This document shows positions 4,452-34,032 of a stretch of DNA of 39,525 bases, piece after piece. The first letter of the stretch is position 1. Every line of letters starts with the position of its first letter. The stretch is from the NCBI RefSeq assembly GCF_020103725.1, contig NZ_JAHXBG010000030.1, positions 100,337-139,861 on the forward strand, given 5' to 3'. Under the pieces are notes generated by a model. It saw only the letters and a list, made by a program, of their open reading frames with translations, ran no database searches and was not told the origin of the DNA. The DNA is from Hyalangium gracile (GTDB taxonomy: Bacteria > Myxococcota > Myxococcia > Myxococcales > Myxococcaceae). A program made the translations under genes and the position numbers.

Positions 4452-4579
4452 ACGTTGCCTGAAGCGCAGGGCGGCAAAGAACCTTCACCGTTGGGTGCCG
4501 AGAAGGCTTGACCAGGATCGTTCCAGGCTCGATCCCCGCCTGGAGAATGCCGTCAAGCGTCAGAGTAGACTCCCAGGGC

Positions 4580-5482
4580 ATGAGCCTGGACGCGAACGAG
4601 CGCGCGGCGCTGTCCCTGATGGGCCTCTCCGTAGGAGACGCCTTCGGCGATCAGTTCTTCCGCTTCGCGGAGCAGGAGGAACGGCTCGTCGCCGAGCGCA
4701 TGGCTCCTCCCGGGCCGTGGCCCTACACGGATGACACGGAGATGGCGCTGTCGGTGGTCGCCATGCTGAGGCGGCACGGGAGAATCGAGCAGGACCCGCT
4801 CGCGCTCGATTTCGCCCGTGGCTATGACCCCTCGCGCGGCTATGGCCCCGCGATGCACCGGGTCCTCAACGCCCTGCGTGAAGGACAGCCGTGGGCGGAG
4901 GTCACGCGGCGCGAGTTCTCGGGGCAGGGGTCCTGGGGCAATGGGGCGGCCATGCGTGTGGGCCCCTTGGGGGCCTACTTCGCGGAAGACCTGCACGCCG
5001 TCGTCGAGCAGGCTCGCCGCTCCGCCGAAGTCACCCACGCACATCCCGAGGCGCTCGCGGGCGCCATCGCCGTCGCCGTCGCGGCGGCACTGGCCTGGAA
5101 CTGCCGCCTGGAGAGTCCGCGGCCTGGCCGCGCCGGTTTCCTGGACCGCCTGCTGCCCTTCGTCCCCGCCAGCGATGTCCACAGCCGGTTACGCAAGGCG
5201 CGGGATCTGCCCGCGAACTCCAGCGTCCCCTTCGCCGTGAGCGTGCTCGGCAATGGCACCAACCTGTCCGCGCAGGACACGGTGCCCTTCGCGCTCTGGT
5301 GCGCGGGCGAGCGGCTCGACGACTTCGAACAGGCCCTCTGGCTCACGGTCAGCGGAGGCGGAGACCGGGACACCACGTGCGCCATCGTGGGAAGCATCGT
5401 GGTGCTCGCTTGCGGTGCCGAGAGCATTCCCTCGGCCTGGCTCACTGCCCGGGAGCCATTGCCCAACGCCAGCGAGCGGTGA
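4580..5482 (+). CDS. ADP-ribosylglycohydrolase family protein (DraG/ARH-like)
   Basis: Family signatures are present: MGLSVGDAFGD, PYTDDTEMALSV, SRGYGPAMHRV, GSWGNGAAMRVGPLGAYF and the C-terminal TVSGGGDRDTTCAIVGSI. The start could alternatively be 4508. Confidence 0.8.
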   Translation: MSLDANERAALSLMGLSVGDAFGDQFFRFAEQEERLVAERMAPPGPWPYTDDTEMALSVVAMLRRHGRIEQDPLALDFARGYDPSRGYGPAMHRVLNALREGQPWAEVTRREFSGQGSWGNGAAMRVGPLGAYFAEDLHAVVEQARRSAEVTHAHPEALAGAIAVAVAAALAWNCRLESPRPGRAGFLDRLLPFVPASDVHSRLRKARDLPANSSVPFAVSVLGNGTNLSAQDTVPFALWCAGERLDDFEQALWLTVSGGGDRDTTCAIVGSIVVLACGAESIPSAWLTAREPLPNASER

Positions 5483-6349: not shown

Positions 6350-6789
6350 GCTTCCTCCGCAGGAAGCCGAGTCTGGCATAACGGCCGTGGAGGAGGGGGC
6401 GCTCGCGCCGTGCGAATCGGAGGAGCAATCTGATCGCAGAGGGTAGGTGGGTGTGGGACCAGGAGGGCCAGCTCGTCCCCACCTGATCCGAAACCCTCTC
6501 CGTCCGGAACCCGACCCCCGCTCCTGGCCAGACGTTCGTTTCTTCAGCCTGAGCCCCGCCGACGTGGCGCGGAGGGTGGCCGAAACGTCATCCACCGTGC
6601 GCTGCGGGTTTCACCCGTGAAAAAAATGCACGGTCCGGGGTACTCCGCACCTTGCCCGTGGGGCATCGGATGTGCACTTGGATGCGCCAACACGGAAGCC
6701 GCGCGTCGCTGGGACGCTCCGGTCTCCGAGGGGGCGCTGATCCTCACAGTACACCGCGGCCTGCCCCCACACGGCCGCGCCGGGACCCT

Positions 6790-7611
6790 ATGTTGACCGT
6801 CCGTTCACTTCGCGTGCTCACCACGATGATCCTGGCCCTGACGGCCCTGAACGCCGCCGGGCAGCAGGAGCAGCTCCTCGAGCCAGCCGTCGTCCGCAAC
6901 CGCCTCTACCGGCCCGCGGGCAACCTGGAGTTCTCACCCAGCGTGGGCGTCTCGATGCTCACCTACCTCACCGCCCACTACACGCTCGACGTGGGGGTGG
7001 CCTACAACCTCTTCGACACCATCGCCGTGGAAGGCCGCGCCGGCTACGCCTTCAGCCGGCAGACGGGCCTGGCCCGCTCCATCTCCGAGAGCTTCCTCGG
7101 CCGCGACGACAAGAAGGTCACCGACGAGCTCCAGGACCTGTGGCGGATGAACCTCCACGGCATCTTCGGCGTGCGCTGGGCTCCCGTGTACGGGAAGCTC
7201 TCGCTGCTGGCCGAGGTCCCCGCGCACTTCCAGGTGTACCTGTGGGGCGGCGGCGGGATGGCCTCGTTCCAGCGCCAGTCGCTGATCCAGTGCTCCCAGG
7301 TGGTGAACCGGGACCTGGGCATCTGCGACGACCGCACCGATCCGCTCGATCGCTCCACCTCCTCCGAGAACTTCTGGGTGAAGGAGTCGCGGGTGGCTCC
7401 GGTGGTGAGCGCGGCGGTGGGCTTCCGGTTCTTCGCCTTCGAGCGGCACGGCGTGAAGTTCGAGCTGCGGGACTGGGTGTTCCGCGACGCCTACCGCGTG
7501 GAGCTGTCTCGGGATGACTGGGAGGCGGGCCGCGAGACGGGCACGCCCGCCGCGAGCCCGGGCTTCACGCACCTGGTCCAGTTCGACATCGGCTACACCT
7601 TCCTCTTCTAA
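6790..7611 (+). CDS. nfsA: Outer-membrane beta-barrel protein, first gene of the Glt/Nfs-type cluster (NfsA/GltA-like)
   Basis: It has a signal peptide (MLTVRSLRVLTTMILALTALNAAGQ), alternating amphipathic beta-strand pattern and a C-terminal ...GYTFLF ending in Phe (OMP signature). Position and ~273-aa size match NfsA/GltA. The naming nfs versus glt is an inference from gene order. Confidence 0.7.
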   Translation: MLTVRSLRVLTTMILALTALNAAGQQEQLLEPAVVRNRLYRPAGNLEFSPSVGVSMLTYLTAHYTLDVGVAYNLFDTIAVEGRAGYAFSRQTGLARSISESFLGRDDKKVTDELQDLWRMNLHGIFGVRWAPVYGKLSLLAEVPAHFQVYLWGGGGMASFQRQSLIQCSQVVNRDLGICDDRTDPLDRSTSSENFWVKESRVAPVVSAAVGFRFFAFERHGVKFELRDWVFRDAYRVELSRDDWEAGRETGTPAASPGFTHLVQFDIGYTFLF

Positions 7612-7617
7612 GAACCC

Positions 7618-8829
7618 ATGCGAACGATCCTGTCCTTCGCGGTGCTTCTGTCCACGGTCGCCGGCGCGCAGCCCGCTGTCGCGCAGGCCGAGCCCACGGT
7701 GCCCGCGCCCGGCGCCGAGACCTCCATTCCGCCCTCGGTGTCCGCGCCCTCGGAGCCCGTGGCCCGTCCTCAGACGCCGCCCGCGCACGAGATGGGGACC
7801 ACCGTCCCCACGGAGCAGTCCCGCCCCGCGCCCCGAGCTCCCTCCGCCGACGAGGCCGAGGAGACCGAGGCCCCGGCGCCCACCGAGGCCGCCGCGCCCG
7901 CTCCGGAGCAGCCCGCCTCGGATGCTCCCGTGGCGGTGGCGGACGTGGACACGGAGCTGCGCACCACGACGCCGGAGCAGCAGCGGCTGGTGCACGGCGC
8001 GCCGCTCTACAACCCGAACGTCTCGGTCCACATCGTCCAGAAGAAGCGCTTCGCGGACGAGGGCAGGCACGAGTTCGCGCTCTACCCGGTGGCGGTGCAG
8101 GTGAACGGCCGCTTCACCAACCACGCGGGCAGCGCGCTCAACTACACGTACCACCTGCAGGAGAACTTCGCCGTCCAGCTCACGGGCCAGTACAACTGGT
8201 ACTCCAACGAGAGCGGCTTCAACCTGGAGCTGATCGACAAGGTGCGCGAGCAGGCGCAGGCGGCCTCCTCGCTGCTGCTGAACTGGGGCGCGCAGGCCGG
8301 CGTCGAGGTGACGCCGTTCTATGGAAAGTTCGCCTTCTACGACAACCACCTGGCGCAGTTCAGCCTCATCATCAGCGGCGGCGCGGGCTTCGGCGGCACG
8401 CGGCACCTGATCCGCCCGGAGGTGGACAACGAGGTGGAGGGCGAGACGTTCACCGTCCCGGCCCGCTTCGGCGACACGGGCACCAAGTTCCTGGGCTCGG
8501 TGGGCGGAGGCTTCCGCATCCAGTTCGGCGACTCCTACGCCGTGCGCTTCGAGGTGAAGGATCTCGTCTACACCGCGCGCGTGGATCGGGTGGACGGCTG
8601 CAACCTGGCCGACTTCGAGAAGATGGAGGCCGCGCGCGCCAGCAACGCCCCGTTCTCCGAGCTGGCGCTCAGCGGCAGCTGCCGGTTCCAGAAGTTCGAC
8701 GGCGTGGACCCCAAGACGAAGAAGAACTACCGCGAGGACATCATCCTCGGGAGGGACCTGGTGGCCGAGCCCTCCTCGGACGTCCTCAACAACGTGAGCT
8801 TCTACGCCGGCTTCTCGATCCTCTTCTGA
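7618..8829 (+). CDS. nfsB: Outer-membrane beta-barrel protein with a Pro/Ala/Glu-rich linker (NfsB/GltB-like)
   Basis: A signal peptide MRTILSFAVLLSTVAGAQPAVAQA is followed by a low-complexity PAPE-rich region and a beta-barrel half ending ...FYAGFSILF. It lies 6 nt after the previous gene, and its stop overlaps the next gene's start (ATGA). Confidence 0.7.
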   Translation: MRTILSFAVLLSTVAGAQPAVAQAEPTVPAPGAETSIPPSVSAPSEPVARPQTPPAHEMGTTVPTEQSRPAPRAPSADEAEETEAPAPTEAAAPAPEQPASDAPVAVADVDTELRTTTPEQQRLVHGAPLYNPNVSVHIVQKKRFADEGRHEFALYPVAVQVNGRFTNHAGSALNYTYHLQENFAVQLTGQYNWYSNESGFNLELIDKVREQAQAASSLLLNWGAQAGVEVTPFYGKFAFYDNHLAQFSLIISGGAGFGGTRHLIRPEVDNEVEGETFTVPARFGDTGTKFLGSVGGGFRIQFGDSYAVRFEVKDLVYTARVDRVDGCNLADFEKMEAARASNAPFSELALSGSCRFQKFDGVDPKTKKNYREDIILGRDLVAEPSSDVLNNVSFYAGFSILF

Positions 8830-10415
8830 TGGAAACCCCTGTCATGTCCCGACTGCTCGCACTCGTCGCCATCGCCCTGGTTCCGCTCACGGCGTCCGCC
8901 CAGGACGCGGGCGCCTACAACCGCGCGCTCGCCGCCTTCAACGCGGGGGATCTCGACACGGCCGCGCCGCTCTTCTTCGAGGCCTCCGAGGGTGGCTCGG
9001 ATCCGGAGACGAAGGGCAAGGCCGAGTACTACCTGGCGCAGACCTTCGCGAAGAAGGGGCTCCCGGTGAGCGCCTTCGTCACCTATGCGGCCATCATCAA
9101 GGAAGGCCCCAAGCACCCCTCGTACCTCAAGGCGGTGGAGGGGCTCGTCGACATGCAGCAGCAGCTGGACGAGCAGAACCTGATCCCCAGCCTCCTGAAC
9201 CAGGCCTACACGGACGAGGTGAGGGATCAGTGGGTGACGCTGCCCCGCGAGGTGCTCGCGCGCATCAACTACCTGGTGGGCACCATCAGCCACCGCCGCG
9301 GCCGCTTCGAGGAGGCGCGCTCGCTGCTGGAGGCCGTGCCGTCCGAGAGCCGCGTCTACGCCAAGGCGCAGTACCTGCTGGGCATCGTCCTGGCGGATCC
9401 GCGCTTCCCGGGCCGTCCGGGCGAGGCCGAGACGCTGGACAAGGCCGCGCTGGCCGCCTTCCAGAAGGTGCTGAGCCAGAAGGGCGAGCAGGCCGAGCGG
9501 CAGCTCGAGCTCAAGGAGACGCGAGAGCTGGCGATGCTGGGGCTCGGGCGCCTGCACTACGGCCGCGGGGAGTACAAGGAGGCGAGCGACGCCTACGAGG
9601 GCGTGCCGCGCTACTCGCGCTACTGGGACCAGGCCCTCTTCGAGAACGGCTTCTCCCGCTTCCAGAACGAGGACTTCGGCGGAGCGCTCGGCAGCCTCCA
9701 GGCGCTGCATGCGCCCCAGTTCGCCGGTGCCTTCCAGCCCGAGTCGTGGATCCTCAAGGCGACCGTCTACTACTACAGCTGCCTCTTCGACGAGGTGAAG
9801 ACGACGCTGGCCGCGTATGACGAGGTGTACGGGCCCATGGCGCAGCAGCTCCAGCCCTTCGTGGGCGAGGACATGGAGTTGATCCCGGCCTTCAACCTGG
9901 TGTCCGCCGCGGAGAACCGGCGGCTGCCGCGCCCCGTCTACCTGTGGATCCGCAACAACGAGCGCGTCCGCGAGGTGATGCGGGTGCTGGCCAACGTGGA
10001 CGCGGAGAAGCGGTCCATCGCTGGGATGTCTTCCTGGAAGGGTAGCGCGCTGGCGACGCAGACGATGGCGGCGCTGGAGGATGTGCGCAACACGCTGCTC
10101 CAGGTGGGCGGCACGCTGGCCAAGAGCCGCCTGCGCGAGGCGGCCGACAACCTGCGCACCTTCTCGGACCAGGCGGAGATCATCCGCGTGCAGACGGCGC
10201 TCGATCAGAAGGATCTGCTCCAGGCCGGCGTGGACCAGAAGGCACTGCTCACCCGGCAGTCGCTCTACCGGCCCGCCATGCCCGGGGCCGCCTGGAACTA
10301 CTGGAAGTTCCAGGGCGAGTTCTGGATCGACGAGATCGGCTACTACCAGTACACCCTCAAGCGGGGGTGTCCGGCGAAGCCGGCCCAGGAGCGCTCCGAG
10401 CTGGGCGCGCGATAG
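8829..10415 (+). CDS. nfsC: Secreted TPR-repeat protein (NfsC/GltC-like)
   Basis: A signal peptide (METPVMSRLLALVAIALVPLTASAQDAG) is followed by multiple TPR-like helical repeats (AEYYLAQTFAKKG, AQYLLGIVLA, LGRLHYGRGEYKEASDAY). The alternative start is 8844. It sits third in the cluster. Confidence 0.75.
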   Translation: METPVMSRLLALVAIALVPLTASAQDAGAYNRALAAFNAGDLDTAAPLFFEASEGGSDPETKGKAEYYLAQTFAKKGLPVSAFVTYAAIIKEGPKHPSYLKAVEGLVDMQQQLDEQNLIPSLLNQAYTDEVRDQWVTLPREVLARINYLVGTISHRRGRFEEARSLLEAVPSESRVYAKAQYLLGIVLADPRFPGRPGEAETLDKAALAAFQKVLSQKGEQAERQLELKETRELAMLGLGRLHYGRGEYKEASDAYEGVPRYSRYWDQALFENGFSRFQNEDFGGALGSLQALHAPQFAGAFQPESWILKATVYYYSCLFDEVKTTLAAYDEVYGPMAQQLQPFVGEDMELIPAFNLVSAAENRRLPRPVYLWIRNNERVREVMRVLANVDAEKRSIAGMSSWKGSALATQTMAALEDVRNTLLQVGGTLAKSRLREAADNLRTFSDQAEIIRVQTALDQKDLLQAGVDQKALLTRQSLYRPAMPGAAWNYWKFQGEFWIDEIGYYQYTLKRGCPAKPAQERSELGAR

Positions 10416-10446
10416 GCTCGGGTAGCACTCGGGCGGTCAGGAGTAA

Positions 10447-10492
10447 CGGGGCAGGCCCGCGCGTTGTTCCGCGCCGTGGCCGCCCCGTTTTC
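10447..10492 (+). terminator. GC-rich stem-loop followed by TTTT between nfsC and nfsD; candidate intrinsic terminator or attenuator
   Basis: The arms cggggcaggcc...ggccgccccg (with a nested cgcgc pairing) are followed by gtttt, 30 nt after the nfsC stop. Confidence 0.4.
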
Positions 10493-10618
10493 CTGTTCAG
10501 CCGTCGAAAGCCGTAGTGCCCTCCGGGGCGCATTCCGTCGTGTTGGCACGGTTGCAGCACTTCTCATTCCAGGAGTGCGCGTCTACCTTCGGTCGTCCCT
10601 TCGATGGCAGGAGTTCGC

Positions 10619-13600
10619 ATGAAGGCGTTCCTTCGTTTCGGTGCGCTGGCGGTGGGTGTAGCGCTCACCGCGAGCGGGGTGGGGGAGGCGGCAGCCTCCA
10701 AGAGGGCGGCGAAGAAGCCTCCAGCGGCGGCAGCCAAGGCGGGCGCGACGTCGAAGAAGTCCACGGCCTCCAGGTCCGCGTCCAAGGACGCCGCGACCAG
10801 GCCGGTGTCGGCCATCCCGGGTGAGCCCGAGGAGAAGGAGCGGCGCAACGGCCCCGCGCGGGTGAGCCCGGCCGCCGGCAAGTTCGCCGATCTGCCGCGC
10901 ATCGCCGACAGCAAGAAGGACGCGCTGGCGGACAAGAAGCGCGACGAGGCCATCGAGGGCTTCAAGCGGCTGATCCCGAAGATCCAGGACGGCACCTCGC
11001 GCAAGGCCGACCTCTTGTACCGGCTCTCGGAGCTGTACTGGGAGAAGTCCAAGTACCTCTACCGGCTGGAGATGGACCGGTACCTGGAGGCGGAGAAGAA
11101 GTACGACGCGGCGGTGGCGCGCGGCGAGAAGGTGGAGGCCCCGAAGGAGGACCACCGCGATAGCGAGCGCTACCGCGCGGAGACGATGAGCCTCTACGAG
11201 GACATCCTGCGCGACTATCCGCAGTACGAGCTGCGTGACGAGGTGCTCTTCTCGCAGGCCTACAACCTCCAGGAGCTGAACCGCGGCCCGGAGGCGGTGA
11301 AGCGCTACGAGGAGCTGATCCGCGACTTCCCGAAGTCGCAGTTCGTCCCGGACGCGTACATCCAGCTGGGCAACCACTACTTCGAGAACAACAAGCTCGT
11401 CCCGGCCAAGCAGAACTACGAGAAGGCGCGCGACACGGGCGTGCCGAAGATCTACGCCTACGCCATCTACAAGCTGGCCTGGTGCGACTACAACAGCGGT
11501 GACTACGAGCAGGGCCTCCAGAAGCTGCAGGAGGCGGTGCAGTTCGCGGAGACGCGCGGCGAGGAGCTGGGCGACCTCAAGACGGAGGCGCTCAATGACC
11601 TGACCGTCTTCTTCGTGCAGCTCGATCAGCCCAAGGAGGCCATCGCCTACTTCAAGGCGAAGGCGCCGACGAAGCGGCAGGCGCGGCTCATCTCCAAGAC
11701 GGCGGTGGGGCTGGCGGACGCCGGCCACTTCGACAGCGCGATCCACATGTTCCGCTGGCTCATCGAGGACAAGCCGATGGGGCCGGGCGCGCCCGAGTAC
11801 CAGCAGGCCATCGTCCGGGCCTACGAGGGGCTGCGCCAGCGCACGCAGGTGCGCTCCGAGATGAAGAAGATGGTGGAGCTCTACCGGCCGGGCGGGACGT
11901 GGTGGGAGGCCAACACCGGCAACAAGACGGTGCTGCGCAACGCCTTCAACGTCACCGAGGAGGCCATGCGCGTGATGGTGACGGAGTACCACCAGGAGGC
12001 GCAGAAGACGCGCCAGGTGGAGACCTACCGGCTCGCGCGCGACATCTACAAGGAGTACGTGGACACGTTCGCCTCCAGCAAGGATCCGGAGTTCATCTCG
12101 GACTCGGCCTTCAACCTGCGCTTCTTCTACGCGGAGATCCTCTGGACGCTCGAGGAGTGGGAGGCGGCCGCCGCCCAGTACGACTCCGTGGTGGCGTTCC
12201 AGATCCCGGACCGCGACTCGGCGCGTGAGGTGTCCAACGAGTCCTACCGCAAGAGCGCCTCGTTCGCCGCGGTGCTGGCCTACGACAAGCTGGTGAAGAT
12301 CGAGCGCGGCCAGCTCACCAAGAGCGACCTCAAGGACGGCCAGAAGGTCGACGAGAACAAGTACAAGGGCGACGTCGAGAAGAAGCGCATCGTCAAGAAG
12401 GACGCGAAGGAGCAGCAGGAGCAGCCGCTCACGCGCTTCGAGGAGCGCCTGGTCGCCGCGTGCGACGTCTACAACAAGCTCTATCCGGACAACCCGGACG
12501 AGGTGGACCTGCGCTACCAGGCGGCGGTCATCCTGTATGACCGGAACCACTTCGTGGACGCCGCGCGGCGCTTCGGAGAGATCATCGTCAAGTACCCGGA
12601 GGAGCGGCGCTCGCGGGACGCGGCGGACCTGACCATGTTCGTGCTCGAGAGCCGCGAGGAGTGGTACGAGCTCAACCAGCTGTCGCGCCAGTTCATGGCC
12701 AACAAGAAGCTGACGAAGCCGGGCACCGAGTTCGCCACCCGCGTGGCCAAGGTGGTGGAGGGCAGCCAGTACAAGTGGGTGGATGAGGTCGTCTACCGCA
12801 AGGAGAAGAACCCGAAGAAGGCCGCCGAGCTCTTCCAGGAGTTCGTCACCGAGTTCCCCAAGTCGGAGAACGCGGACCGGGCGCTCACCTACGCGATGAT
12901 CATCTTCCAGGAGGCCGCCGAGCTGGATCGCGGCGTCGAGGCCGGCGAGCGCGTCCTGCGCGAGTATCCGGATAGCGTCTTCAACCTGAAGGTCCGCTAC
13001 ACGCTGGCCGGCTTCTACGAGAAGATGGCCGAGTTCAAGAAGGCCGCCGAGGCGTACGAGGCCTTCGTCGCCGCCTATGACACCGCCACGGGCAACGGCT
13101 CGGGCGCGAAGAAGGGCAAGGGCGCGAAGAAGGCTCCGGCGTCGAAGGTCGCCCAGAGCGGCGGCGAGCGCCAGCAGCTCATCCAGGAGGCCGAGGCGTG
13201 GGTGGCCGACGCGCTCTTCAACGCGGGCCTCTGGTGGGAGGGCGTGGGCGCCTCGCCGAAGGCCATCGCCGCCTACAGCGCGTACATCTCGCGCTTCCGG
13301 GACCGCAAGGACGTGCCGCAGCTGGCCTTCAACATCGCCCTGGTCCACGAGAAGGACGGACGCTGGGAGAGCGCGGCGAAGGCGTTTGCCTCCTTCGCGG
13401 ACACGTACGCGAAGGACTCGCGCACCACCGCCGGCCAGCTCTACCTGGCGAAGTACCGCGAGCTGATGGCGTACCGGCAGCTCAAGAGCCCGCGGGACAT
13501 GGAGCGCGTGCAGGGCGAGCTGGTGCGCGGCTGGGCCCGGCTCTCCGAGGAGGACAAGAAGAACGTCAGCCTGCTGGACGCCTACGCCCACGCTCGCTTC

Positions 13601-14242
13601 CTGGAGCTGGAGTCGCTGTGGAAGCGCTACACGGACATCAAGTTCTCGCGCGTGTCCACCATCCGGAGGGATCTGGCCGCCAAGCAGCGCGAGATCCAGA
13701 AGGTGGAGAAGGAGTACGCGGCGGTGCTGGCCATCGGCTCGGGCGAGTGGGGCATCGCGGCGCTCACCCGGATCGGGCTTGCGTACTCGGACTTCGCTCG
13801 CAACATCCTCGAGTCGCCGGATCCCAAGGGGCTGGATGAGGATCAGCTGGCCATGTACCGCAGCGAGCTCGAGAACCTGGCGCTCCCGCTCGAGGACAAG
13901 TCCACCGAGGCGCTGGAGAAGGCGCTCGACAAGGCCTACGAGCTGTCCATCTACAACGAGTGGACGCTGGCGGCGCAGGACCAGGTGAACAAGTACCGTC
14001 CGGGGGCCTACGCCCAGGTGCGGCAGGTGCCCTTCCGCGGCAGCGAGTTCTTCGCCACCTCGGACGTGGCCAAGGATCCGGGGATGTCGGCCGCCGCCAC
14101 CGCGGGCGCCGCTCCCGCCGCTCCCGCCGCCGCTGGCACTCCGACGCCGGCTCCGGCGACTCCGGAGTCCCAGTCGGCTCCTCAGTCTCCTCCACAGGGC
14201 TCGCCCGCGCCCGCCGCCACGGTGGGGGAGGCCCGGCCGTGA
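10619..14242 (+). CDS. nfsD: Large (~1207 aa) periplasmic TPR-repeat protein with a Pro/Ala-rich C-terminal tail (NfsD/GltD[AgmU]-like)
   Basis: A signal peptide (MKAFLRFGALAVGVALTASG) is followed by repeated TPR motifs throughout (e.g. YIQLGNHYFENNKLVPAKQNYEKA, AIYKLAWCDYNSGDYEQGLQKLQEA) and a C-terminal APAAPAAAGTPTPAPATP tail. Size and position match the ~1200-aa NfsD/GltD. A GCAGGAG RBS precedes the ATG at 10619. Confidence 0.8.
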   Translation: MKAFLRFGALAVGVALTASGVGEAAASKRAAKKPPAAAAKAGATSKKSTASRSASKDAATRPVSAIPGEPEEKERRNGPARVSPAAGKFADLPRIADSKKDALADKKRDEAIEGFKRLIPKIQDGTSRKADLLYRLSELYWEKSKYLYRLEMDRYLEAEKKYDAAVARGEKVEAPKEDHRDSERYRAETMSLYEDILRDYPQYELRDEVLFSQAYNLQELNRGPEAVKRYEELIRDFPKSQFVPDAYIQLGNHYFENNKLVPAKQNYEKARDTGVPKIYAYAIYKLAWCDYNSGDYEQGLQKLQEAVQFAETRGEELGDLKTEALNDLTVFFVQLDQPKEAIAYFKAKAPTKRQARLISKTAVGLADAGHFDSAIHMFRWLIEDKPMGPGAPEYQQAIVRAYEGLRQRTQVRSEMKKMVELYRPGGTWWEANTGNKTVLRNAFNVTEEAMRVMVTEYHQEAQKTRQVETYRLARDIYKEYVDTFASSKDPEFISDSAFNLRFFYAEILWTLEEWEAAAAQYDSVVAFQIPDRDSAREVSNESYRKSASFAAVLAYDKLVKIERGQLTKSDLKDGQKVDENKYKGDVEKKRIVKKDAKEQQEQPLTRFEERLVAACDVYNKLYPDNPDEVDLRYQAAVILYDRNHFVDAARRFGEIIVKYPEERRSRDAADLTMFVLESREEWYELNQLSRQFMANKKLTKPGTEFATRVAKVVEGSQYKWVDEVVYRKEKNPKKAAELFQEFVTEFPKSENADRALTYAMIIFQEAAELDRGVEAGERVLREYPDSVFNLKVRYTLAGFYEKMAEFKKAAEAYEAFVAAYDTATGNGSGAKKGKGAKKAPASKVAQSGGERQQLIQEAEAWVADALFNAGLWWEGVGASPKAIAAYSAYISRFRDRKDVPQLAFNIALVHEKDGRWESAAKAFASFADTYAKDSRTTAGQLYLAKYRELMAYRQLKSPRDMERVQGELVRGWARLSEEDKKNVSLLDAYAHARFLELESLWKRYTDIKFSRVSTIRRDLAAKQREIQKVEKEYAAVLAIGSGEWGIAALTRIGLAYSDFARNILESPDPKGLDEDQLAMYRSELENLALPLEDKSTEALEKALDKAYELSIYNEWTLAAQDQVNKYRPGAYAQVRQVPFRGSEFFATSDVAKDPGMSAAATAGAAPAAPAAAGTPTPAPATPESQSAPQSPPQGSPAPAATVGEARP

Positions 14243-15687
14243 TGCGCACTCCATCCAAGGTACCCGCAGGGAAGACCGCCATGACGATCGCCCGCACGTT
14301 CGCCGCCGCCGCGCTCGCCTTCACGACCGCGTGCGCCAAGGCTCCCCAGGTCAAGCCGTCACCTGTCACCGAGGTGGCGCCCAGGCCGTCGCCGACGCAG
14401 GTGGCTGCTCAGCCCTCCTCGCCCGCGGCGTCGCCCTCGGCGGCTCCGTCGTCCGGGGCCAACGAGTCCGGGACGCACCAGCTGTTCGTGTCGGCGCTCG
14501 CGTCGTTCGACGCGGGGGACTACGACGCCGCGCGCAAGGGCTTCGAGGAGGTGGTGGCCAAGGCCCCGCAGAGCCTCAACGCCCAGTTCAACCTGGGGCT
14601 CATCGCCGAGCGCCAGGGCCGGCTCGCGGATGCCCAGGCGGCCTACGAGAAGGTCCTCTCGGTGGACGCCAACCACCAGCCCTCGCTGCTGAACCTGGGC
14701 CGGCTGTACCGGCTGCAGGACCAGTTCGAGTCCGCCATCAACCTGTACGAGAAGGCGCTGAAGACGCCGGGCCGCGAGCATGACGTGGCGCTGCTCAACA
14801 ACCTCACGGTGGCCTACCGGCTGGCCGGGAAGTTCGAGCAGGCCGAGGCCACCGCCCGGCGCGTGCTGGCGCGCAGCAAGGACAACCCCGAGGCCTACAA
14901 GAACCTGGCCCTCATCTACTACGACCAGGGGCAGTACCGGCTGGCGGAGGTGGTGAGCGCCAACGCGCGCAAGCTCGCGGAGAGCGATCCGGGCGTCTAC
15001 AACAACCTGGGGATGATCTACCTGAAGCTGAACGATCGCTCCCGCGCGCTGGCCCAGTTCCAGAAGGCCGTGTCGCTCGATCAGAAGTTCGCTCCGGGCC
15101 ACCTGAACATCGGCGCCATGGCGCTGGCCTACCGGGACTACCTGGGCGCGGAGCGCTCCTTCGCCAAGGCGGTGGAGCTCGATCCCACCTCCTACGAGGG
15201 CCACCTCTATTACGCCTACGCGCTCGACGGGCAGAAGGGGCGCGACCCGAAGAAGGGGCTCGCGGCGGGCGAGGCCTTCGAGAAGGTGCTCACCCTGCGC
15301 CCCGAGCAGCCGGATGCCGTCTGCGGCGCCGGCTGGGCCTACGCGGCGGACCGGGGCGGCTGGGACAAGGCGCTCGGCTTCCTCGAGCGCTGCAAGGGGC
15401 TGCAGAGCACCTCCGATCAGGACAAGCAGATGATCGAGGCGAAGCTGCAGGGCATCGCGGCCATGAAGAAGAGCGGCGCGCAGCAGCCCGCCGACGAGGA
15501 GAGGAAGGAAGCCACCCCGGCCCAGGGCGGCGACGGTTCGCTGCTCGACAAGGTGTCCGAGGATGCGGCGCGCCAGGAGGGCACTCCTCCCGAGGAGGTG
15601 GCGCCCGCGGGTGATGCGGCCTCCAGCGAGGCTCCGGCGGGCAATGACGCTCCGAGCAGCACGCCTGCTCCCTCTCCTGTCCCGTGA
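14242..15687 (+). CDS. nfsE: TPR-repeat lipoprotein (NfsE/GltE[AglT]-like)
   Basis: Its start overlaps the nfsD stop (ATGA). A lipoprotein-type signal MTIARTFAAAALAFTTAC is present (alternative start 14281). A Pro/Ser-rich linker is followed by 8+ TPR repeats (YDAARKGFEEVVAKAPQSLNAQFNLGLI..., AYKNLALIYYDQGQY...) and an acidic C-terminal tail. Confidence 0.75.
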   Translation: MRTPSKVPAGKTAMTIARTFAAAALAFTTACAKAPQVKPSPVTEVAPRPSPTQVAAQPSSPAASPSAAPSSGANESGTHQLFVSALASFDAGDYDAARKGFEEVVAKAPQSLNAQFNLGLIAERQGRLADAQAAYEKVLSVDANHQPSLLNLGRLYRLQDQFESAINLYEKALKTPGREHDVALLNNLTVAYRLAGKFEQAEATARRVLARSKDNPEAYKNLALIYYDQGQYRLAEVVSANARKLAESDPGVYNNLGMIYLKLNDRSRALAQFQKAVSLDQKFAPGHLNIGAMALAYRDYLGAERSFAKAVELDPTSYEGHLYYAYALDGQKGRDPKKGLAAGEAFEKVLTLRPEQPDAVCGAGWAYAADRGGWDKALGFLERCKGLQSTSDQDKQMIEAKLQGIAAMKKSGAQQPADEERKEATPAQGGDGSLLDKVSEDAARQEGTPPEEVAPAGDAASSEAPAGNDAPSSTPAPSPVP

Positions 15688-15876
15688 GCACCCCGGACGG
15701 GACAAATGACCGGACGCAGTGAGAAGATTTTTCACCTTTGGGGGCGGGCGACGTGGCAGGCGCGAGGCAAGTTCCCTACGATCCAAGGGGTTGGGCCTGG
15801 ATCGACTCCTGCAAGGATCTGCGGGAACCTCTTCCAGGGCCCGCTGTCGAAACCGATGGGTGAACGGAGGCTGAAG

Positions 15877-16152
15877 ATGAAGCGACTGGCATCGGCGGTG
15901 GTGGCGGCGGCGGTGTGGGCAGGCCCTGCGGTGGCTCAGGAGAAGGACGAAGTGAAGGTCATCCAGGAGGAAGACAAGACGGTCTATCGGAAGAAGACCG
16001 TCATCGACTTCACGGATGTCACGGTCGAGGGCGAGCTCACCAAGCCCGAGGGCTCCTACGTCCTCAACCGGAAGAAGACGGACTTTCAGAGCCTCATCAA
16101 GGTCCGGGACAACTTCAACCCCGAGCTGCAGAAGTCGGTGGACAACCTCTAG
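15877..16152 (+). CDS. nfsF: Small secreted protein (~91 aa) (NfsF/GltF-like)
   Basis: MKRLASAVVAAAVWAGPAVAQE is a signal peptide, and a GGAGG RBS lies 7 nt upstream of the ATG at 15877. The six-frame ORF from 15706 adds an unlikely leader. Size and position match the ~90-aa NfsF/GltF. Confidence 0.6.
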   Translation: MKRLASAVVAAAVWAGPAVAQEKDEVKVIQEEDKTVYRKKTVIDFTDVTVEGELTKPEGSYVLNRKKTDFQSLIKVRDNFNPELQKSVDNL

Positions 16153-16206
16153 CGCCTGAAGGGGGCGCGCGTTTTCTGGGTGTGGAAGGGGAAGGGAACG
16201 ATCCTC

Positions 16207-18138
16207 ATGGCGGCGGCGAAGAACAACGGATTGAGGTTGCGCATCACGGGGCCGGACGGGTCCACGATGGAGACCATCGCGGACGCGGAGAGCATCATCG
16301 TCGGCTCGGGTGCACAGGCGGCGGTGAAGATTCCGGACCCTAGCGTCTCCAACCTCCACCTGATGTTGAAGGTGGACAAGGACGGCGGGGTGACGGCGAT
16401 TGATCTCGGCAGCGAGTCCGGGACGCAGGTGGGCGGGCAGCGGCTGATGGTGCCCAAGCCCCTGGCGTCCGGAGACGTGCTGACGGTGGGCGCATCCCGG
16501 GTGGAGGTGCTCTTCGGAGAGGCGGAGCCGCCGGCGCCCAAGGTGCCGGTGGGCGCGCAGGTGAGCGGCAGGGCCTTCCAGGGCTCGGTGACGCAGCGCA
16601 CGCCGGCGCCTCCGGCCAGGCACGCGGCGCCCGAGGTAGTGGTGCCGCCGTCGAGCCGGACGCTGACGCCTCCGGGGCTGCGGATGAAGGGGGCGGCGAC
16701 GACGCCGGTGCCCCTGCCGACGAAGAAGCCGGAGACGCCGGCCCACCTGCAGGAGCCGCTGCCGCCGGACGCCGTGCCGACGCCCGAGGCCAAGGTGCTC
16801 CAGGTGGCGATGCTCTGGGGCGACCAGATCCTCGAGGTGCAGCACTTCCGGGACGGGGTGCCTGTCACCATCGGCGAGGCCAAGAAGAACTTCTTCCACG
16901 TCTTCACGTCCGAGGTGGGCGCGCGCCACGTGCTCGCGGTGGCCCAGGGCGACAAGGTGGAGCTGCGCGTGCCCGCGGGTGGCGGCGTCTTCGTCACCAC
17001 TCGGGGCGATGTGCGGACCAAGAGCGCGCTGCGCGCTTCCGGCCAGCTGGCGCCGTCGGTGGCGAGCCAGGGCCAGGTCCTCTCGCTGGGCCTGCACGAC
17101 CGGGCGGAGGTGTCGCTCGGGACGATCTCCTTCGTGGTGCGGTACGTGAGGCCGTCGCCAACGGTCCAGGTGAACACGCTGAACGAGGCGGACTTCACCT
17201 ACTTCAAGATCGCCTGCATCACGGTGATGGCGGCCGCGGCGGTGGTGGCGGCCATGCTGCTGACGCCGCGCTCGGAGCTGCCCACGCCGGATGACATCCT
17301 CCGGGACCAGGAGCGCGTGGCGAAGTTCCTCATCAAGCCCGAGCAGAAGGTCGAGGTGAAGAAGCTGAAGCTGGCCGGGGTGGAGGAGGGCGCCAAGGCC
17401 AAGGACGAGGAGGGCAAGTTCGGCAAGGAGGAGGCGAAGAAGGCCGAGGCGGATCCCTCGAAGCCGGGCACTCCGGTGGTGGACAAGACCAAGCGCGAGA
17501 AGGACCGCCAGGTGGTGGGCAAGGTGGGTCTGCTGGGCGCCTTCAAGGGCCTGAAGGGCGGCGCCTCGGATGTGTTCGGGCCGGGCGGCCTGGGCACCGG
17601 CATCAACAACTCGCTCGGTGGCCTGAAGTCGGGCGCGGGGCTGGGGGATGCGCAGGGCGTGGGTGGCCTGGGCTCTCGCGGCAACGGCACGGGCGGTGGT
17701 GGCACGGCGCTGGGCATCGGCGGCCTGGGCACCAAGGGTGACGGTCGCGGCACCGGTGGCCGCGGCGGCATCGACCTGGGTGGCAAGGGCAAGGCGACCA
17801 CGAAGATCATCCCTGGCAAGACGACGGTGGTCGGCGGTCTCGACAAGGAAGTGATCGCCAAGATCATCCGGCAGCACCAGAACGAGATCAAATACTGCTA
17901 CGAGTCCGAGCTGAACAAGAACCCGAGCCTGGCGGGCAAGGTGGCGGTGGCCTTCACCATCGACCCGGCGGGCGCGGTGGCGGACGCCTCGGTGACGGAG
18001 ACGACGCTGAACAACTCCACGGCGGAGAACTGCATGCTGTCGCGCATCCGCCGCTGGAAGTTCCCGGAGCCCAAGGGCGGCGGCGTGGTGGCGGTCACCT
18101 ACCCGTGGCTCTTCTCGCCCGCGGGTACCGAGGAGTAG
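16207..18138 (+). CDS. nfsG: FHA-domain / single-TM / Gly-rich / TonB-C-like protein (NfsG/GltG[AgmX]-like)
   Basis: The N-terminus has an FHA fold pattern (LRITGPDGSTMETIADAESIIVGSG...GGVTAIDLGSESGTQVGGQRL...GDVLTVG). The TM helix is FKIACITVMAAAAVVAAMLL. Lys/Glu-rich and GLGxG-repeat segments follow, then a C-terminal TonB-C-like domain (IIRQHQNEIKYCYESELNKNPSLAGKVAVAFTIDPAGAV...). The track ORF starts at a GTG (16180); the ATG at 16207 with an upstream GAAGGG is preferred. Confidence 0.8.
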   Translation: MAAAKNNGLRLRITGPDGSTMETIADAESIIVGSGAQAAVKIPDPSVSNLHLMLKVDKDGGVTAIDLGSESGTQVGGQRLMVPKPLASGDVLTVGASRVEVLFGEAEPPAPKVPVGAQVSGRAFQGSVTQRTPAPPARHAAPEVVVPPSSRTLTPPGLRMKGAATTPVPLPTKKPETPAHLQEPLPPDAVPTPEAKVLQVAMLWGDQILEVQHFRDGVPVTIGEAKKNFFHVFTSEVGARHVLAVAQGDKVELRVPAGGGVFVTTRGDVRTKSALRASGQLAPSVASQGQVLSLGLHDRAEVSLGTISFVVRYVRPSPTVQVNTLNEADFTYFKIACITVMAAAAVVAAMLLTPRSELPTPDDILRDQERVAKFLIKPEQKVEVKKLKLAGVEEGAKAKDEEGKFGKEEAKKAEADPSKPGTPVVDKTKREKDRQVVGKVGLLGAFKGLKGGASDVFGPGGLGTGINNSLGGLKSGAGLGDAQGVGGLGSRGNGTGGGGTALGIGGLGTKGDGRGTGGRGGIDLGGKGKATTKIIPGKTTVVGGLDKEVIAKIIRQHQNEIKYCYESELNKNPSLAGKVAVAFTIDPAGAVADASVTETTLNNSTAENCMLSRIRRWKFPEPKGGGVVAVTYPWLFSPAGTEE

Positions 18139-18368
18139 GGCTCGGCCGTCTGGCTCGGAGCTGAAGTGTGAGAGCCTCCGGTGCGCCTCAGGGTGCCCGG
18201 GGGCTCTTCTCTTTGCGGGCCGCCTCGGGGGCTCGAGGCGGAGTCGTGGGATGGATGACGTTCGCCCTGAAGAAGTTTCACGTCGAGCGTTGCCGACGTG
18301 CGGGAGGCGTCATTAACGTCCAGCGCCGCTTCGGGATGTTCCTGGGAGGGCCTGCGTCGGGAGGTACT

Positions 18369-18965
18369 GTGAGGAAGTTCCTGCTGGTCGCCGCGCTTGC
18401 GCTGTCCACCTCTGCCCTGGCGGGTCCGCCGCCCGAGGGCGTGGAGTTCAAGCCTCGTCGCGGCTTCTTCACCGAGACGGACATCGGGATGTTCTTCACG
18501 CTCGGCGGGGAGAACACGTACTCGAACGCGCAGTCGTACCTGCAGCTCGGCGTGGGGTATGACCTGACGGAGACGATCTCGCTCGGGCTGCACTTCGGGC
18601 TGGGCTCGTCCGCGGCGAACTGCTTCGCGGGCTACCTGCCGGACTCGGACATCTGCGCCCTGTCGGACAACTTCACGGTGGCCTTCGGCGACATGACGGC
18701 CGCGTACCACGTGCGGATGACCGACCGGCTCTACCTGACGCCGAAGATCGCGGCGGGGTACACGCGGCTGGATCCGGCGCCGGTGGACGTGGACGGGGAT
18801 CCGGGCCGCTCCATCAACGCGCTGAACGCGGGCGTGGGCATCGGCATCGAGTACGGGACGATGATGGACCACTTCTCGGTGGGCGCGGACTTCCTGGCCC
18901 GCTACATCATCGGTCCGAACATCCCCACGTTCGCGCTGTTCCCTCGCGTGAAGTACACGTTCTGA
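18369..18965 (+). CDS. nfsH: Outer-membrane beta-barrel protein (NfsH/GltH-like)
   Basis: A GTG start at 18369 preceded by a GGGAGG RBS gives the signal peptide MRKFLLVAALALSTSALAGPPPEG. The protein is a beta-strand-rich ~198-aa product ending ...PRVKYTF (C-terminal Phe). The alternative in-frame ATG is 18336. It is the eighth gene of the cluster. Confidence 0.65.
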   Translation: MRKFLLVAALALSTSALAGPPPEGVEFKPRRGFFTETDIGMFFTLGGENTYSNAQSYLQLGVGYDLTETISLGLHFGLGSSAANCFAGYLPDSDICALSDNFTVAFGDMTAAYHVRMTDRLYLTPKIAAGYTRLDPAPVDVDGDPGRSINALNAGVGIGIEYGTMMDHFSVGADFLARYIIGPNIPTFALFPRVKYTF

Positions 18966-19134: not shown

Positions 19135-20187
19135 ATGCAACCGATTCGTGATGTCTCGCAGCGCAACGCCTGCCTCGCCGATGACCCGGAGGGAGCGGCG
19201 TCGCGGACCACCACCGCGTATGTCGTCCAGAAGGGCGACACGCTCTCGAAGATCGCCGCGGGTCTTCAGCGGCAGGGCCTGGTGGGAAGCACCGCGGAGC
19301 TCGTCCGCCGGATCCTCACCCTCAATCCCCAGATCAAGGATCCGAACCGGATCGAGAAGGGCGACACGCTGCAGTTGCCCGCGGTCCCCGCGCAGGCGCC
19401 TCAGCGGCAGGCGGAGTCGAAGCACAACCGCCTCGAGGGCTACTTCGTCCGCTTCCCGATGACGCCGGCCTACCTGCCGCCGCTCCTGGCGGAGAAGAGC
19501 GGGCCGAGCTTCTCGGCGGGCCTGGCGGCGATGACGGGCAAGGCGCCGGCCCCGGCTCCAGCGGCTTCCTTCCTGCGCACCGACGGCAAGCCGTTCCCGA
19601 CCTCCCAGGATGGGACCCCGCGGTACAAGCAGCGCGACATGGATGCGGGCGGCAATTGGGGGGACCGGTACCTGGGAGACAAGGCTGCGGAACCCAAGCG
19701 CATCGCGGACAAGGGCTGCGCGTTGACGTCCGTGGCGATGGCTCTCAGCAAGCTCTCGGGAGAGACGATCACCCCGGGAGTGCTGGATGCCTTCCTCGAC
19801 ACGCATGACGGCTACGTTGGCAACAGCCTCAAGTGGGCGACGGCGGGGCAGGCGACGCAGTCGCCCATCTCGGTGACGAAGACGACCACCTGGAACCTGG
19901 ACGCCATCGACAAGGAGCTGGATGCGGGGCGTCCCGTGGTGCTGGCGGTGGACTACAAGGTGGGCAGCAGCGGTGGCAATGTCGGCACGGACCACTGGGT
20001 GTGCCTCACGCGCCGGGGCACGGACGGGGTCTACTTCGCCAACGATCCGGCCACGGGCGCGGAGATCCGGTTCCAGAAGCAGTCCGATGGGCAGTTGCAG
20101 CAGATCAATGAGAGCGGAGGCTCCCCGCCGAAGCCGTACCGCAGCTCGGGCGAGTTCGCCACCTTCAGCAAGGCGGTGCAGTCATGA
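19135..20187 (+). CDS. LysM domain protein with a C-terminal papain-like (C39-like/BtrH-type) cysteine peptidase domain; putative cell-wall hydrolase
   Basis: The LysM motif is YVVQKGDTLSKIAAGL...NPQIKDPNRIEKGDTLQLP. The C-terminal domain carries Cys (DKGCALTSVAMAL) and a downstream His (GTDHWVCL) in the arrangement of C39-like peptidases. A GGAG RBS lies 6 nt upstream. Confidence 0.65.
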   Translation: MQPIRDVSQRNACLADDPEGAASRTTTAYVVQKGDTLSKIAAGLQRQGLVGSTAELVRRILTLNPQIKDPNRIEKGDTLQLPAVPAQAPQRQAESKHNRLEGYFVRFPMTPAYLPPLLAEKSGPSFSAGLAAMTGKAPAPAPAASFLRTDGKPFPTSQDGTPRYKQRDMDAGGNWGDRYLGDKAAEPKRIADKGCALTSVAMALSKLSGETITPGVLDAFLDTHDGYVGNSLKWATAGQATQSPISVTKTTTWNLDAIDKELDAGRPVVLAVDYKVGSSGGNVGTDHWVCLTRRGTDGVYFANDPATGAEIRFQKQSDGQLQQINESGGSPPKPYRSSGEFATFSKAVQS

Positions 20188-20356
20188 GGGAGCTGGTGAG
20201 CCTTGCCCGCTTCCTCCTCGTTCTCGCGGCGATCCTGGCGACGGAGGCGCTGGCGGCTCCATCCTTCACATCCGTTTCGGCGTGCGTCCACCCAGGTGCC
20301 AGGCAGTGAAGGAACTGTCGGGAGAGGTCGGATGGACCGGCCTGCTCCAAGCACCT

Positions 20357-21667
20357 ATGAGGGTTGTCATGCACCGAATGCTGGGGATGAGCACGAGCCT
20401 GATCGCGGTCCTGCTGACCGCGTGTGGAGAGGCGGTGGAGCCCCCTGCGCCGCCTCCCGCTCCTCCCACGTACCACCGGGACATCGCGCCGCTGGTCCAG
20501 GAGAAGTGCGGGAGCTGCCACTCCGAGGGAGGGATCGCGCCGTTCGCGCTCGGGACATACGAGGAGGTCTTCGCGCTGCGCGGAGCCATCAAGGGGGCCG
20601 TGAAGGCACGCATGATGCCGCCGTGGATGCCGGGCAAGGACTGCACGGAGTACCTGCAGGATCGCTCGCTCTCGGACGAGCAGATCGCGCTGATCTCGCG
20701 CTGGGTGGATGAGGGTGGAGCGGAGGGAGACCCCGCGGAGGCCCCTGCTGGAGTGTCAGTGCAATCGGGAGGGCTCTCCCGCGCGGATCTGACGCTGGCG
20801 ATGCCCACGGAGTACTCACCAACGCAGACGCCGGATGAGTACCGCTGCTTCATCCTCGACTGGCCGGAGACGGCGGTGCGCTACGTCAGCGGGTTTCGCG
20901 GCAACCCGGGGCAGCCCTCGATCGTTCACCACGTGATCGCGTTCCTGGCGAAGCCCGACGAGGTGGCCGCCTTCCAGGCGTTGGACGCGGCGGACCCGAA
21001 CCCGGGGTACAGCTGCTACGGAGGCCCAGGCCGGCCGGGAAACACGGTGTCGTGGCTCGGCAGCTGGGTGCCGGGCAGCGGCGGCGCGGACTACCCCGCC
21101 GGCACCGGCATTCGAGTGGATCCCGGCTCCAAGATCGTCCTGCAGGTCCACTACAACCTGAGTGGGGCGAACGCGGCGGCCGATCGGACCTCGGTCTCGG
21201 TGCGGCTGGAGTCCTCGGTGCAGAAGGTGGCCATCATGCAGCCCTGGGCCAACCCGAACTGGATCGAGGGGGACAACATGCCCATCCCCGCGGGGCGGGC
21301 GGATGTGCGGCACCGCTTCTCGTTCGATCTGGTGCCTGTGCTCTCGCAGCTGACGCGAGGGGTGTTTCGCAGCAACGAGCCCATCACCGTGTACGCGTCC
21401 GCGTTGCACATGCACACGCTGGGGACGTGGGGCCGGATGGAGATCGAGCGAAGGACCGGGGGCAACGATTGCATGCTCCACATCCCGCGCTGGGACTTCC
21501 ACTGGCAGGGCAGCTACCAGTTCACCCAGCCCAAGGTGGTGAAGGCGGGGGACCGCATCGCCATCGAGTGCCACTGGGACAACAGCCTGCCCATTGCGCA
21601 GGATGTACGGTGGGGTGAGGGAACCAACGATGAAATGTGCCTGGGAACCTTCTACATGACCCAATAG
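20357..21667 (+). CDS. Lipoprotein with an N-terminal CxxCH heme-c (planctomycete-cytochrome-like) domain fused to a copper type II ascorbate-dependent monooxygenase-like (PHM/DBH-fold) domain
   Basis: The lipobox is in MSTSLIAVLLTACGE, and the heme motif is APLVQEKCGSCHSEGGIAPFAL. Downstream His/Met ligands have PHM-like spacing: HH (SIVHHVIAF), H (VLQVHYN), HxH (SALHMHTLG) and M (TNDEMCLGTFYM). The track ORF from 19922 overlaps the LysM gene, so the internal start with a lipoprotein signal was chosen. Confidence 0.65.
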   Translation: MRVVMHRMLGMSTSLIAVLLTACGEAVEPPAPPPAPPTYHRDIAPLVQEKCGSCHSEGGIAPFALGTYEEVFALRGAIKGAVKARMMPPWMPGKDCTEYLQDRSLSDEQIALISRWVDEGGAEGDPAEAPAGVSVQSGGLSRADLTLAMPTEYSPTQTPDEYRCFILDWPETAVRYVSGFRGNPGQPSIVHHVIAFLAKPDEVAAFQALDAADPNPGYSCYGGPGRPGNTVSWLGSWVPGSGGADYPAGTGIRVDPGSKIVLQVHYNLSGANAAADRTSVSVRLESSVQKVAIMQPWANPNWIEGDNMPIPAGRADVRHRFSFDLVPVLSQLTRGVFRSNEPITVYASALHMHTLGTWGRMEIERRTGGNDCMLHIPRWDFHWQGSYQFTQPKVVKAGDRIAIECHWDNSLPIAQDVRWGEGTNDEMCLGTFYMTQ

Positions 21668-21791
21668 TCGTAGAGATAGGTCATTGGATTGGACTTCTAG
21701 CCTTATTTCCTGGGGGATAAGGCTAGAGGGCTTGAAATCTACCAGTGTCATCGCCATGATGCGTCGCGTCGGCTCTTGAGCTGGAGGCGCA

Positions 21792-33182: not shown

Positions 33183-33572
33183 TCAGCGGATGGGTCCTCC
33201 CGCGCCGGCCGTCCCGCTCTCCCTCGCTACACGGCTCCGCTCGTCGGCCAGCTCCACACGAGCCTGTATGGTGCGTTGGCCCAGTACGTACGGAACCCAC
33301 AGCGCCAACAGCTTCCACACGGCAATACCCGCGTTGGACAGCAGTCGGTCCACCTGTTTCACTCCGTGCTTGCCCTGAGCCCCTCGGGCCAGCGCCACCG
33401 CTTGGCCGATGGCGTACACCGACAGGCTGGCCGCGTGGATGACTCCCAACGTGGCCAGCGCCAGCGACAGCACGCGCTTGGCGTGCAGATCCTCTCCGAA
33501 GAGGCCTTCGAGGCAGGTACGCACCTGCTGCTCAGGGATGGCGGAGGAACTCACCGGCCACGTAGTATGCAC
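33183..33572 (-). pseudogene. Truncated IS4-family transposase N-terminal fragment (remnant)
   Basis: HAKRVLSLALATLGVIHAASLSVYAIGQAVA...HGVKQVDRLLSNAGI matches the conserved N-terminal region of IS4-type DDE transposases. Only ~129 aa are present, and no DDE core follows before the aminotransferase gene. Confidence 0.55.
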
Positions 33573-33642
33573 CGCACCCTACCTGGCGCATCAAGCGTTC
33601 AACTCGGCGCTTGTCTGCTTGCCCGCAAGATGAGGGGATGCC

Positions 33643-33897: not shown

Positions 33898-34032
33898 AGC
33901 GCATGGCGCAAGACGTCCAGCGGGTGCTCGATCAACGACTGCTGCCCGTGGTGGTGCTTACCGACGGTGAGCCGGAGATGATGAACCTGCTTGAGCAGGT
34001 GTTGGCCGCGCACGTGCCCAAGGCCACGCGGA

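Follow-up and report, generated by a model that had tools for sequence, protein, structure and literature searches.

The window analysed here is a stretch of 39,525 nucleotides from the genome of Hyalangium gracile (contig NZ_JAHXBG010000030.1), which carries on its forward strand a cluster of eight genes that we identify, with high confidence, as the orthologue of Myxococcus xanthus nfsA-H, the genes of a sporulation machine paralogous to the Glt gliding complex (Table 1). The system is already known, having been characterised in M. xanthus, and its occurrence in Hyalangium is ordinary and expected. An original prediction, made from the sequence of the window, had described eight same-strand genes with the order and architectures that Table 1 lists, and these are borne out by the open reading frames (ORFs), by Pfam and NCBIfam matches, by hydropathy and by the terminal sequences of the products. 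The start/stop overlaps that it described between the genes exist at two junctions and at none of the others: 1-nt TGATG overlaps join nfsD to nfsE and, if nfsC starts at 8829 and not at 8844, nfsB to nfsC. The remaining genes are separated by spacers of 6 bp (A/B), about 200 bp (C/D), 189 bp (E/F), 54 bp (F/G) and about 200–230 bp (G/H), and M. xanthus nfs is spaced similarly, its C-D and E-F gaps likewise measuring ~200 bp.

The nfsA-H genes and their orthology

The GC content at third codon positions (GC3) ranges from 0.81 to 0.96 across the eight forward-strand ORFs, in a genome of 68% GC and a window of which most lies at 65–72% GC. Two long antisense ORFs (10583-14254 and 14359-17877, reverse strand) were considered as genes and rejected, because codon-position GC marks them as high-GC shadows. 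The lengths of all eight genes equal those of their orthologues in six other genera, and the cluster is therefore intact; the eight-gene order itself recurs in all seven genera compared, among them H. minutum, Stigmatella aurantiaca, Archangium violaceum, Cystobacter fuscus and Corallococcus.

Every product has a one-to-one, full-length counterpart in M. xanthus. The beta-barrel assignment of A, B and H was made from TIGR04565 and OMP_b-brl matches together with the C-terminal Phe; against TIGR04565 (cut-off 60 bits), the NfsA orthologue scores 176.9 bits and the NfsB orthologue 63.8 bits. By BLASTP, the full-length NfsA orthologue is 66% identical to M. xanthus NfsA (80% to the S. aurantiaca orthologue), and the corresponding identities are 64% for NfsB, 78% for NfsC, 68% over 1208 aligned positions for NfsD, 61% for NfsE, 77% for NfsF, 66% for NfsG and 76% for NfsH. 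NfsD also matches YbgF/CpoB-like TPR models, and the NfsG orthologue is 100% identical to a protein that NCBI lists as 'TonB family protein [Hyalangium gracile]'. With regard to translation starts, an invariant ribosome-binding site, CAGGAGYTCGC-ATG, sets the start of nfsD at 10619, the ATG of nfsE is preceded by the ribosome-binding site GGGGGAGG, and nfsH probably starts at the GTG at 18369, behind a GGGAGG ribosome-binding site.

Our reference was the locus of M. xanthus DK1622 in which the G product finds its best match (CP000113.1, 3914282-3936330). Its A-H genes encode 294, 442, 512, 1219, 499, 96, 682 and 200 aa. For MXAN_3371-3378, Mueller et al. 2010 (PMC2875238) give the same lengths and the same corrected starts of nfsD and nfsF (3918630 and 3923942) in their Table 3 and text, so that the reference is the experimentally defined nfs operon. 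The window reproduces its composition and order, as had been predicted, with a layout equal to that of MXAN_3371-3378 and the same strand and domain architectures throughout; NfsB and NfsG of H. gracile each lack about 40 aa relative to M. xanthus, in low-complexity linkers. Outside Myxococcus, A-H are 70–86% identical to the S. aurantiaca and 63–85% to the A. violaceum proteins (BLASTP). The S. aurantiaca DW4/3-1 locus, to which Mueller et al. 2010 had drawn attention (STIAU_2471-2480), belongs to the closest cultured relative compared. It carries an opposite-strand response-regulator gene between nfsG and nfsH that interrupts the operon (L082:12014-12481), whereas the window has none.

The original prediction had proposed a BLAST comparison with both the Nfs and the Glt proteins, and a phylogeny of the D and G subunits, as ways of assigning the paralogue, and both were carried out. 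Our Glt comparison set consisted of the G1 locus of Myxococcus faecalis (L081), which holds GltD, E, F, G and H, a 548-aa ORF and, after GltH, a 4091-aa GltI, and of several metagenome-assembled G1 loci; named GltG proteins were reached by means of a distant homologue (P0190) as a stepping-stone query. Against the Glt G1 proteins, the window products are 26–30% (D), 26–30% (E), 40–48% (F), 28–33% (G) and 25–29% (H) identical in best local BLASTP alignments, of which that of G is full-length. Among the proteins compared, each window product is thus closer to its M. xanthus Nfs counterpart, at 61–78%, than to a Glt protein, with 25–48% to GltD-H. In neighbour-joining trees of D and of G, the window falls inside the Nfs clade (bootstrap 100) as sister to Stigmatella (100), while Glt forms a separate clade with support of 99–100; branching within the Nfs clade tracks the relationships among genera.

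The position of the locus agrees with its phylogeny. Downstream of the cluster, the order bipA, alpha/beta hydrolase, PocR-sigma54 activator, CDF transporter, hypothetical gene, rsmD, coaD and aminotransferase is that of M. xanthus, and the seven genes from bipA to coaD, which were compared directly, are 59–88% identical to their M. xanthus equivalents. The H. gracile nfs genes are thereby positionally orthologous to those of M. xanthus. Taken together, the identity levels, the D and G trees, this downstream synteny and the family models discussed below support the Nfs rather than Glt identity that had been proposed.

Three points weigh against this identification. The trees, built with 100 bootstrap replicates, cover a modest sample, from which G4 and G5 of M. 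xanthus are missing. The local context is only partly conserved, since the window lacks a Ribosomal_L3-family gene that precedes nfsA in Myxococcus, Stigmatella, Archangium, Cystobacter and Corallococcus, and three genes are inserted downstream of nfsH. Finally, the functional role proposed for H. gracile would follow from orthology, with the AglRQS motor as an assumed partner.

Table 1. Features of the nfs locus of H. gracile and its upstream flank (positions in the window)
Feature	Position	Strand	Attributes
nfsA-H-type cluster	6790-18965	+	eight intact ORFs
nfsA orthologue, outer-membrane beta-barrel, 273 aa	6790-7611	+	TIGR04565, signal peptide, C-terminal ...TFLF
nfsB orthologue, outer-membrane beta-barrel, Ala/Pro-rich N-terminal region, 403 aa	7618-8829	+	signal peptide, C-terminal ...SILF
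nfsC orthologue, secreted TPR protein, 528 aa	8829-10415	+	signal peptide, TPR matches; 523 aa from ATG 8844
nfsD orthologue, TPR protein, about 1207 aa	10619-14242	+	N-terminal hydrophobic anchor/signal; alternative ATG 10604
nfsE orthologue, TPR lipoprotein, 481 aa	14242-15687	+	possible lipobox ...AFTTAC, strong TPR matches
nfsF orthologue, small secreted protein, 91 aa	15877-16152	+	signal peptide
nfsG orthologue, 643 aa	16207-18138	+	FHA, one transmembrane helix, Gly/Lys-rich linker, TonB_C / AgmX-PglI C-terminal domain
nfsH orthologue, small outer-membrane beta-barrel, 198 aa	18369-18965	+	signal peptide, C-terminal ...KYTF; 209 aa from ATG 18336
Presumed promoter/regulatory region upstream of nfsA	6596-6789	+	conserved blocks
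Strong hairpin, terminator- or stabiliser-like	10438-10495	+	23 nt after nfsC stop codon
Two-box promoter-like non-coding block, 46 nt	10558-10603	+	TTCTCA-N17-TACCTT
Ser/Thr kinase	589-2397	-	upstream of nfsA
DUF2381 protein	2411-3289	-	upstream of nfsA
ADP-ribosylglycohydrolase	4508-5482		upstream of nfsA
Hypothetical gene, 369 aa	5486-6595	-	upstream of nfsA

The nfsC-nfsD interval and other non-coding elements

The region between nfsC and nfsD holds two elements, a hairpin and a promoter-like block, which we compared across genera (window 10416-10618; L082:4170-4407; L083:3952-4271; L084:4237-4441; L085:4136-4407; L086:4134-4392; L002:4135-4348). The hairpin has a predicted folding energy (dG) of -41.3 kcal/mol and a z-score of -6.4. 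Its position is shared by six of the seven genera, with differing sequence, and it is weak in M. xanthus, where the structure after nfsC is much less stable than in the window. In the comparison, the paired fraction of cells is 81.8%, a value that none of 500 shuffles reaches (shuffles give 74%), and the changes are compensatory, with seven pairs altered on both sides. Further downstream, CACTTCTCAWTC... and ...TCTACYTT...GTNCCT are kept upstream of nfsD in all seven genera, with a variable spacer between them. S. aurantiaca shares the nfsC-nfsD elements of the window, including TGGCACGG..GCAGCA. A sigma-54-like motif, TGGCACGGTTGCAGCA at 10544-10559, precedes the two-box block in Hyalangium and Stigmatella only; a sigma-54 consensus scan of the window returned 8 matches where 16 would be expected by chance, and since the matches fall below chance expectation, the TGGCAC motif upstream of nfsD is no evidence by itself. 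A generic scan of the nfs locus for sigma-70 promoters and terminators found nothing above background, and no part of the window matches an Rfam family at the gathering threshold. A 15-codon upstream ORF (VRVYLRSSL...) within the nfsC-nfsD block was rejected, because A. violaceum lacks a start codon there and conservation does not follow codon positions.

The position of the hairpin and block coincides with the seam between the G2-like (A-C) and G1-like (D-H) modules of the cluster, at which the paralogous glt genes divide into their two loci, and we tentatively raise the possibility that nfs is a two-module unit, in which internal termination or attenuation after nfsC would be combined with an internal promoter, or with translational control, for nfsD-H. 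Under such an arrangement the orthologue would be transcribed as nfsABC and nfsD-H, with a stoichiometry or timing unlike that of the single-operon model. The covariation that supports the hairpin and the retention of the two-box block in seven genera speak for it, as does the report that complementary DNA (cDNA) spanning nfsC-D could not be amplified in M. xanthus (Mueller et al. 2010, PMC2875238). The same authors, however, attributed that failure of reverse-transcription PCR to secondary structure and found a PnfsD::mCherry fusion to be silent; moreover, the hairpin is weak in the organism in which these experiments were performed, the sigma-54-like motif is neither conserved nor above chance, and the two boxes might act instead in translation or RNA stability. 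On balance we think it rather unlikely that the operon is divided in this way. If two modules did exist, the single-transcript model from M. xanthus would have to be revised. The conserved nfsC-nfsD elements offer a concrete target for work on the expression of the machine's two halves.

Upstream of nfsA, the presumed regulatory region shares the blocks AAACGT..CC, GTGAAAAAAATGCACGG, CTTGCCCG and TGGATGCGCCA with S. aurantiaca, A. violaceum and M. xanthus, and is 78% identical over 229 nt to that of H. minutum. In M. xanthus, expression specific to sporulation is driven by the 323 bp that precede nfsA (PMC2875238), a promoter region to which Nla6, MrpC and FruA bind (bioRxiv 10.1101/2023.07.26.550624). 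A further conserved non-coding sequence, GGAAnnTTTTTTC, was observed across four genera in the nfsE-nfsF intergenic region (15688-15876), where Hyalangium and Stigmatella also have an inverted repeat, GATCCAAG...CTTGGATC.

Paralogous machines and the expected mechanism

Since Nfs and Glt share their composition and gene order, the cluster could in principle represent the Agl-Glt gliding complex itself, with the G2 (gltA-C) and G1 (gltD-H) genes fused in Hyalangium. NCBIfam models of the Glt proteins bear directly on this question, and they reject the C, E, F and G products of the window just as they reject M. xanthus NfsC, E, F and G: the GltC model (cut-off 450 bits) gives 220.6 bits for the window and 213.9 for M. 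xanthus NfsC; GltE (cut-off 225) gives 108.5 and 123.9, with M. faecalis GltE at 757; CglF/GltF (cut-off 90) gives 79.6 and 67.9, with M. faecalis GltF at 141.7; and GltG (cut-off 650) gives 352.1 and 337.1, with M. faecalis GltG at 1076.5. The window products are thus well below cut-offs that the true Glt proteins, at 142 to 1076 bits, pass. In favour of a gliding complex, the H product does pass the CglE (GltH) model (NF033755, cut-off 70) with 212 bits; M. xanthus NfsH, at 214 bits, however, outscores the true GltH of L081, at 177 bits, so this model is unable to separate the two. Automatic annotation by means of the CglE model can therefore assign NfsH, a sporulation protein, wrongly to gliding motility. 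No gltI/J/K-like genes were found in the window, and no giant TPR gene (GltI) lies near the cluster, whereas in the Agl-Glt system (GltA-K with AglRQS) gltI and gltJ come after gltD-H, and gltA-C stand with gltK at a separate locus. Given also identities of 61–86% to Nfs proteins versus 25–48% to GltD-H, and the Nfs-clade bootstrap of 100, by which the phylogeny already refutes it, we give a gliding complex at this locus almost no credence. In searches aimed at a Glt set of H. gracile, none of the 20 proteins scanned of 150 diverse NfsG homologues, retrieved from 1.8 billion representatives, reached the GltG cut-off, a contig scan with exact peptides of a metagenome-assembled Archangiaceae GltG (P0344) returned metagenome-assembled loci only, and a homologue search with an Archangium-type GltG returned uncultured lineages only.

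It had also been argued that because the M. xanthus glt genes are split over two loci, contiguity itself points to Nfs. The conclusion stands, but the argument is weak and contiguity is not diagnostic, because contiguous B-C-D-E-F-G-like genes occur in two uncultured deltaproteobacterial loci (L061 and L063) and C-to-G genes, lacking only a B-like ORF, in a third (L071), all of which belong neither to the Nfs clade nor to the core Glt clade, and because G1 and G2 are reported to be grouped together in Anaeromyxobacter (Luciano et al. 2011, PMC3169522). These metagenome-assembled clusters, and the presence of several paralogous clusters in Myxococcales (PMC3169522), would allow the window to hold another Glt-like paralogue of unassigned function, resembling M. 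xanthus G4 or G5 or the uncultured contiguous type, yet this is extremely improbable, in that the window is orthologous to G3 (= nfs) by position and phylogeny, each of its eight genes showing high identity, and D and G of the metagenome-assembled clusters reach only 26–29% identity (trimmed tree alignments).

With the cluster taken as nfs, the most informative experiments are those performed in M. xanthus, where sporulation induces the operon and spores are viable only if every nfs gene is present (PMC2875238). There NfsG binds AglR, and the AglRQS proton channel, together with the proton-motive force, drives NfsD foci that orbit the spore with the Exo polysaccharide; the coat is loose without Nfs or Agl (Wartel et al. 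2013, PMC3858216). Because of the orthology, a mechanism of this type is the best explanation in H. gracile, where localisation, motor coupling, spore-coat function and developmental regulation would be expected to follow the M. xanthus experiments. The eight products would form an envelope-spanning complex, with NfsG placed in the inner membrane by a single transmembrane helix, its FHA domain in the cytoplasm and its TonB-like C-terminus in the periplasm. NfsD is predicted to be an N-terminally anchored TPR protein, NfsC and the lipoprotein NfsE to be periplasmic TPR proteins, and NfsF a small secreted protein, while NfsA, NfsB and NfsH would be the beta-barrels of the outer membrane. In M. 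xanthus the AglRQS motor, which is of the TolQR/ExbBD/MotAB type and encoded elsewhere in the genome, moves Nfs complexes around the rounding cell, and as these drag strands of Exo polysaccharide a compact spore coat forms; an H. gracile motor, presumably also unlinked to nfs, would be expected to act likewise. In agreement with the original prediction, which placed an AglRQS-type motor outside this stretch, no MotA/ExbB- or ExbD-type gene was found in the window.

The paralogous A-H proteins of the Agl-Glt system have the same architecture as those of the window and presumably follow the same logic, in which a TolQR-like proton channel, coupled to a TonB-like G protein, sets an envelope-spanning complex in motion; the window differs in holding A-H as a single locus. 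A more distant likeness is to Tol-Pal and TonB-ExbBD, through the TonB_C-type domain and single transmembrane helix of G and the YbgF/CpoB-like TPR of D, and a motor of the TolQR/ExbBD family would be the expected energy source for Nfs as well. Nfs differs from these systems in having many more subunits, with TPR scaffolds, an FHA domain and barrels of its own in the outer membrane, in its unlinked motor genes, and in its output, which would be lateral surface transport instead of import or outer-membrane constriction.

The transmembrane helix of the window's NfsG (about residues 329-356) has the Nfs-type sequence DFTYFKI...MLLTPR and not the Glt type. We observed that this sequence, and its GltG equivalent DFTALNIFL..FF...FVITA.N, are each conserved within their clade and ~25% identical between clades; NfsG and GltG are both reported to bind the same AglR despite their dissimilar helices. 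The AglR-binding determinant may thus lie outside the G helix, or tolerate two sequence types.

In practical terms, the H. gracile genes, which carry generic labels in public databases (e.g. 'TonB family protein'), can now be named nfsA-H, and the presence of nfs, which adds a genus to those with this cluster, fits Hyalangium as a spore-forming, fruiting myxobacterium. Beyond annotation, the H. gracile locus matters little.

Surroundings of the locus

The three inserted genes that separate nfsH from bipA here, but not in M. xanthus (19135-23174), encode a LysM/peptidase C39-like protein, a copper type II monooxygenase-like protein and an Amt ammonium transporter. H. minutum (L084) has the monooxygenase and Amt genes as well, so the insertion is probably a genus-level feature. 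At the far end of the window, a 1709-aa RHS-repeat protein (34372-39501, reverse strand) is encoded in a stretch of clearly lower GC content (54–59%, versus about 68%), and no Pfam family matches its C-terminal 230 aa above cut-off. Small unannotated ORFs, including one of 108 aa (34033-34359, reverse strand), follow the RHS-repeat gene at 33183-34359, and the region as a whole has the look of a polymorphic toxin gained by horizontal transfer, possibly with an immunity gene.

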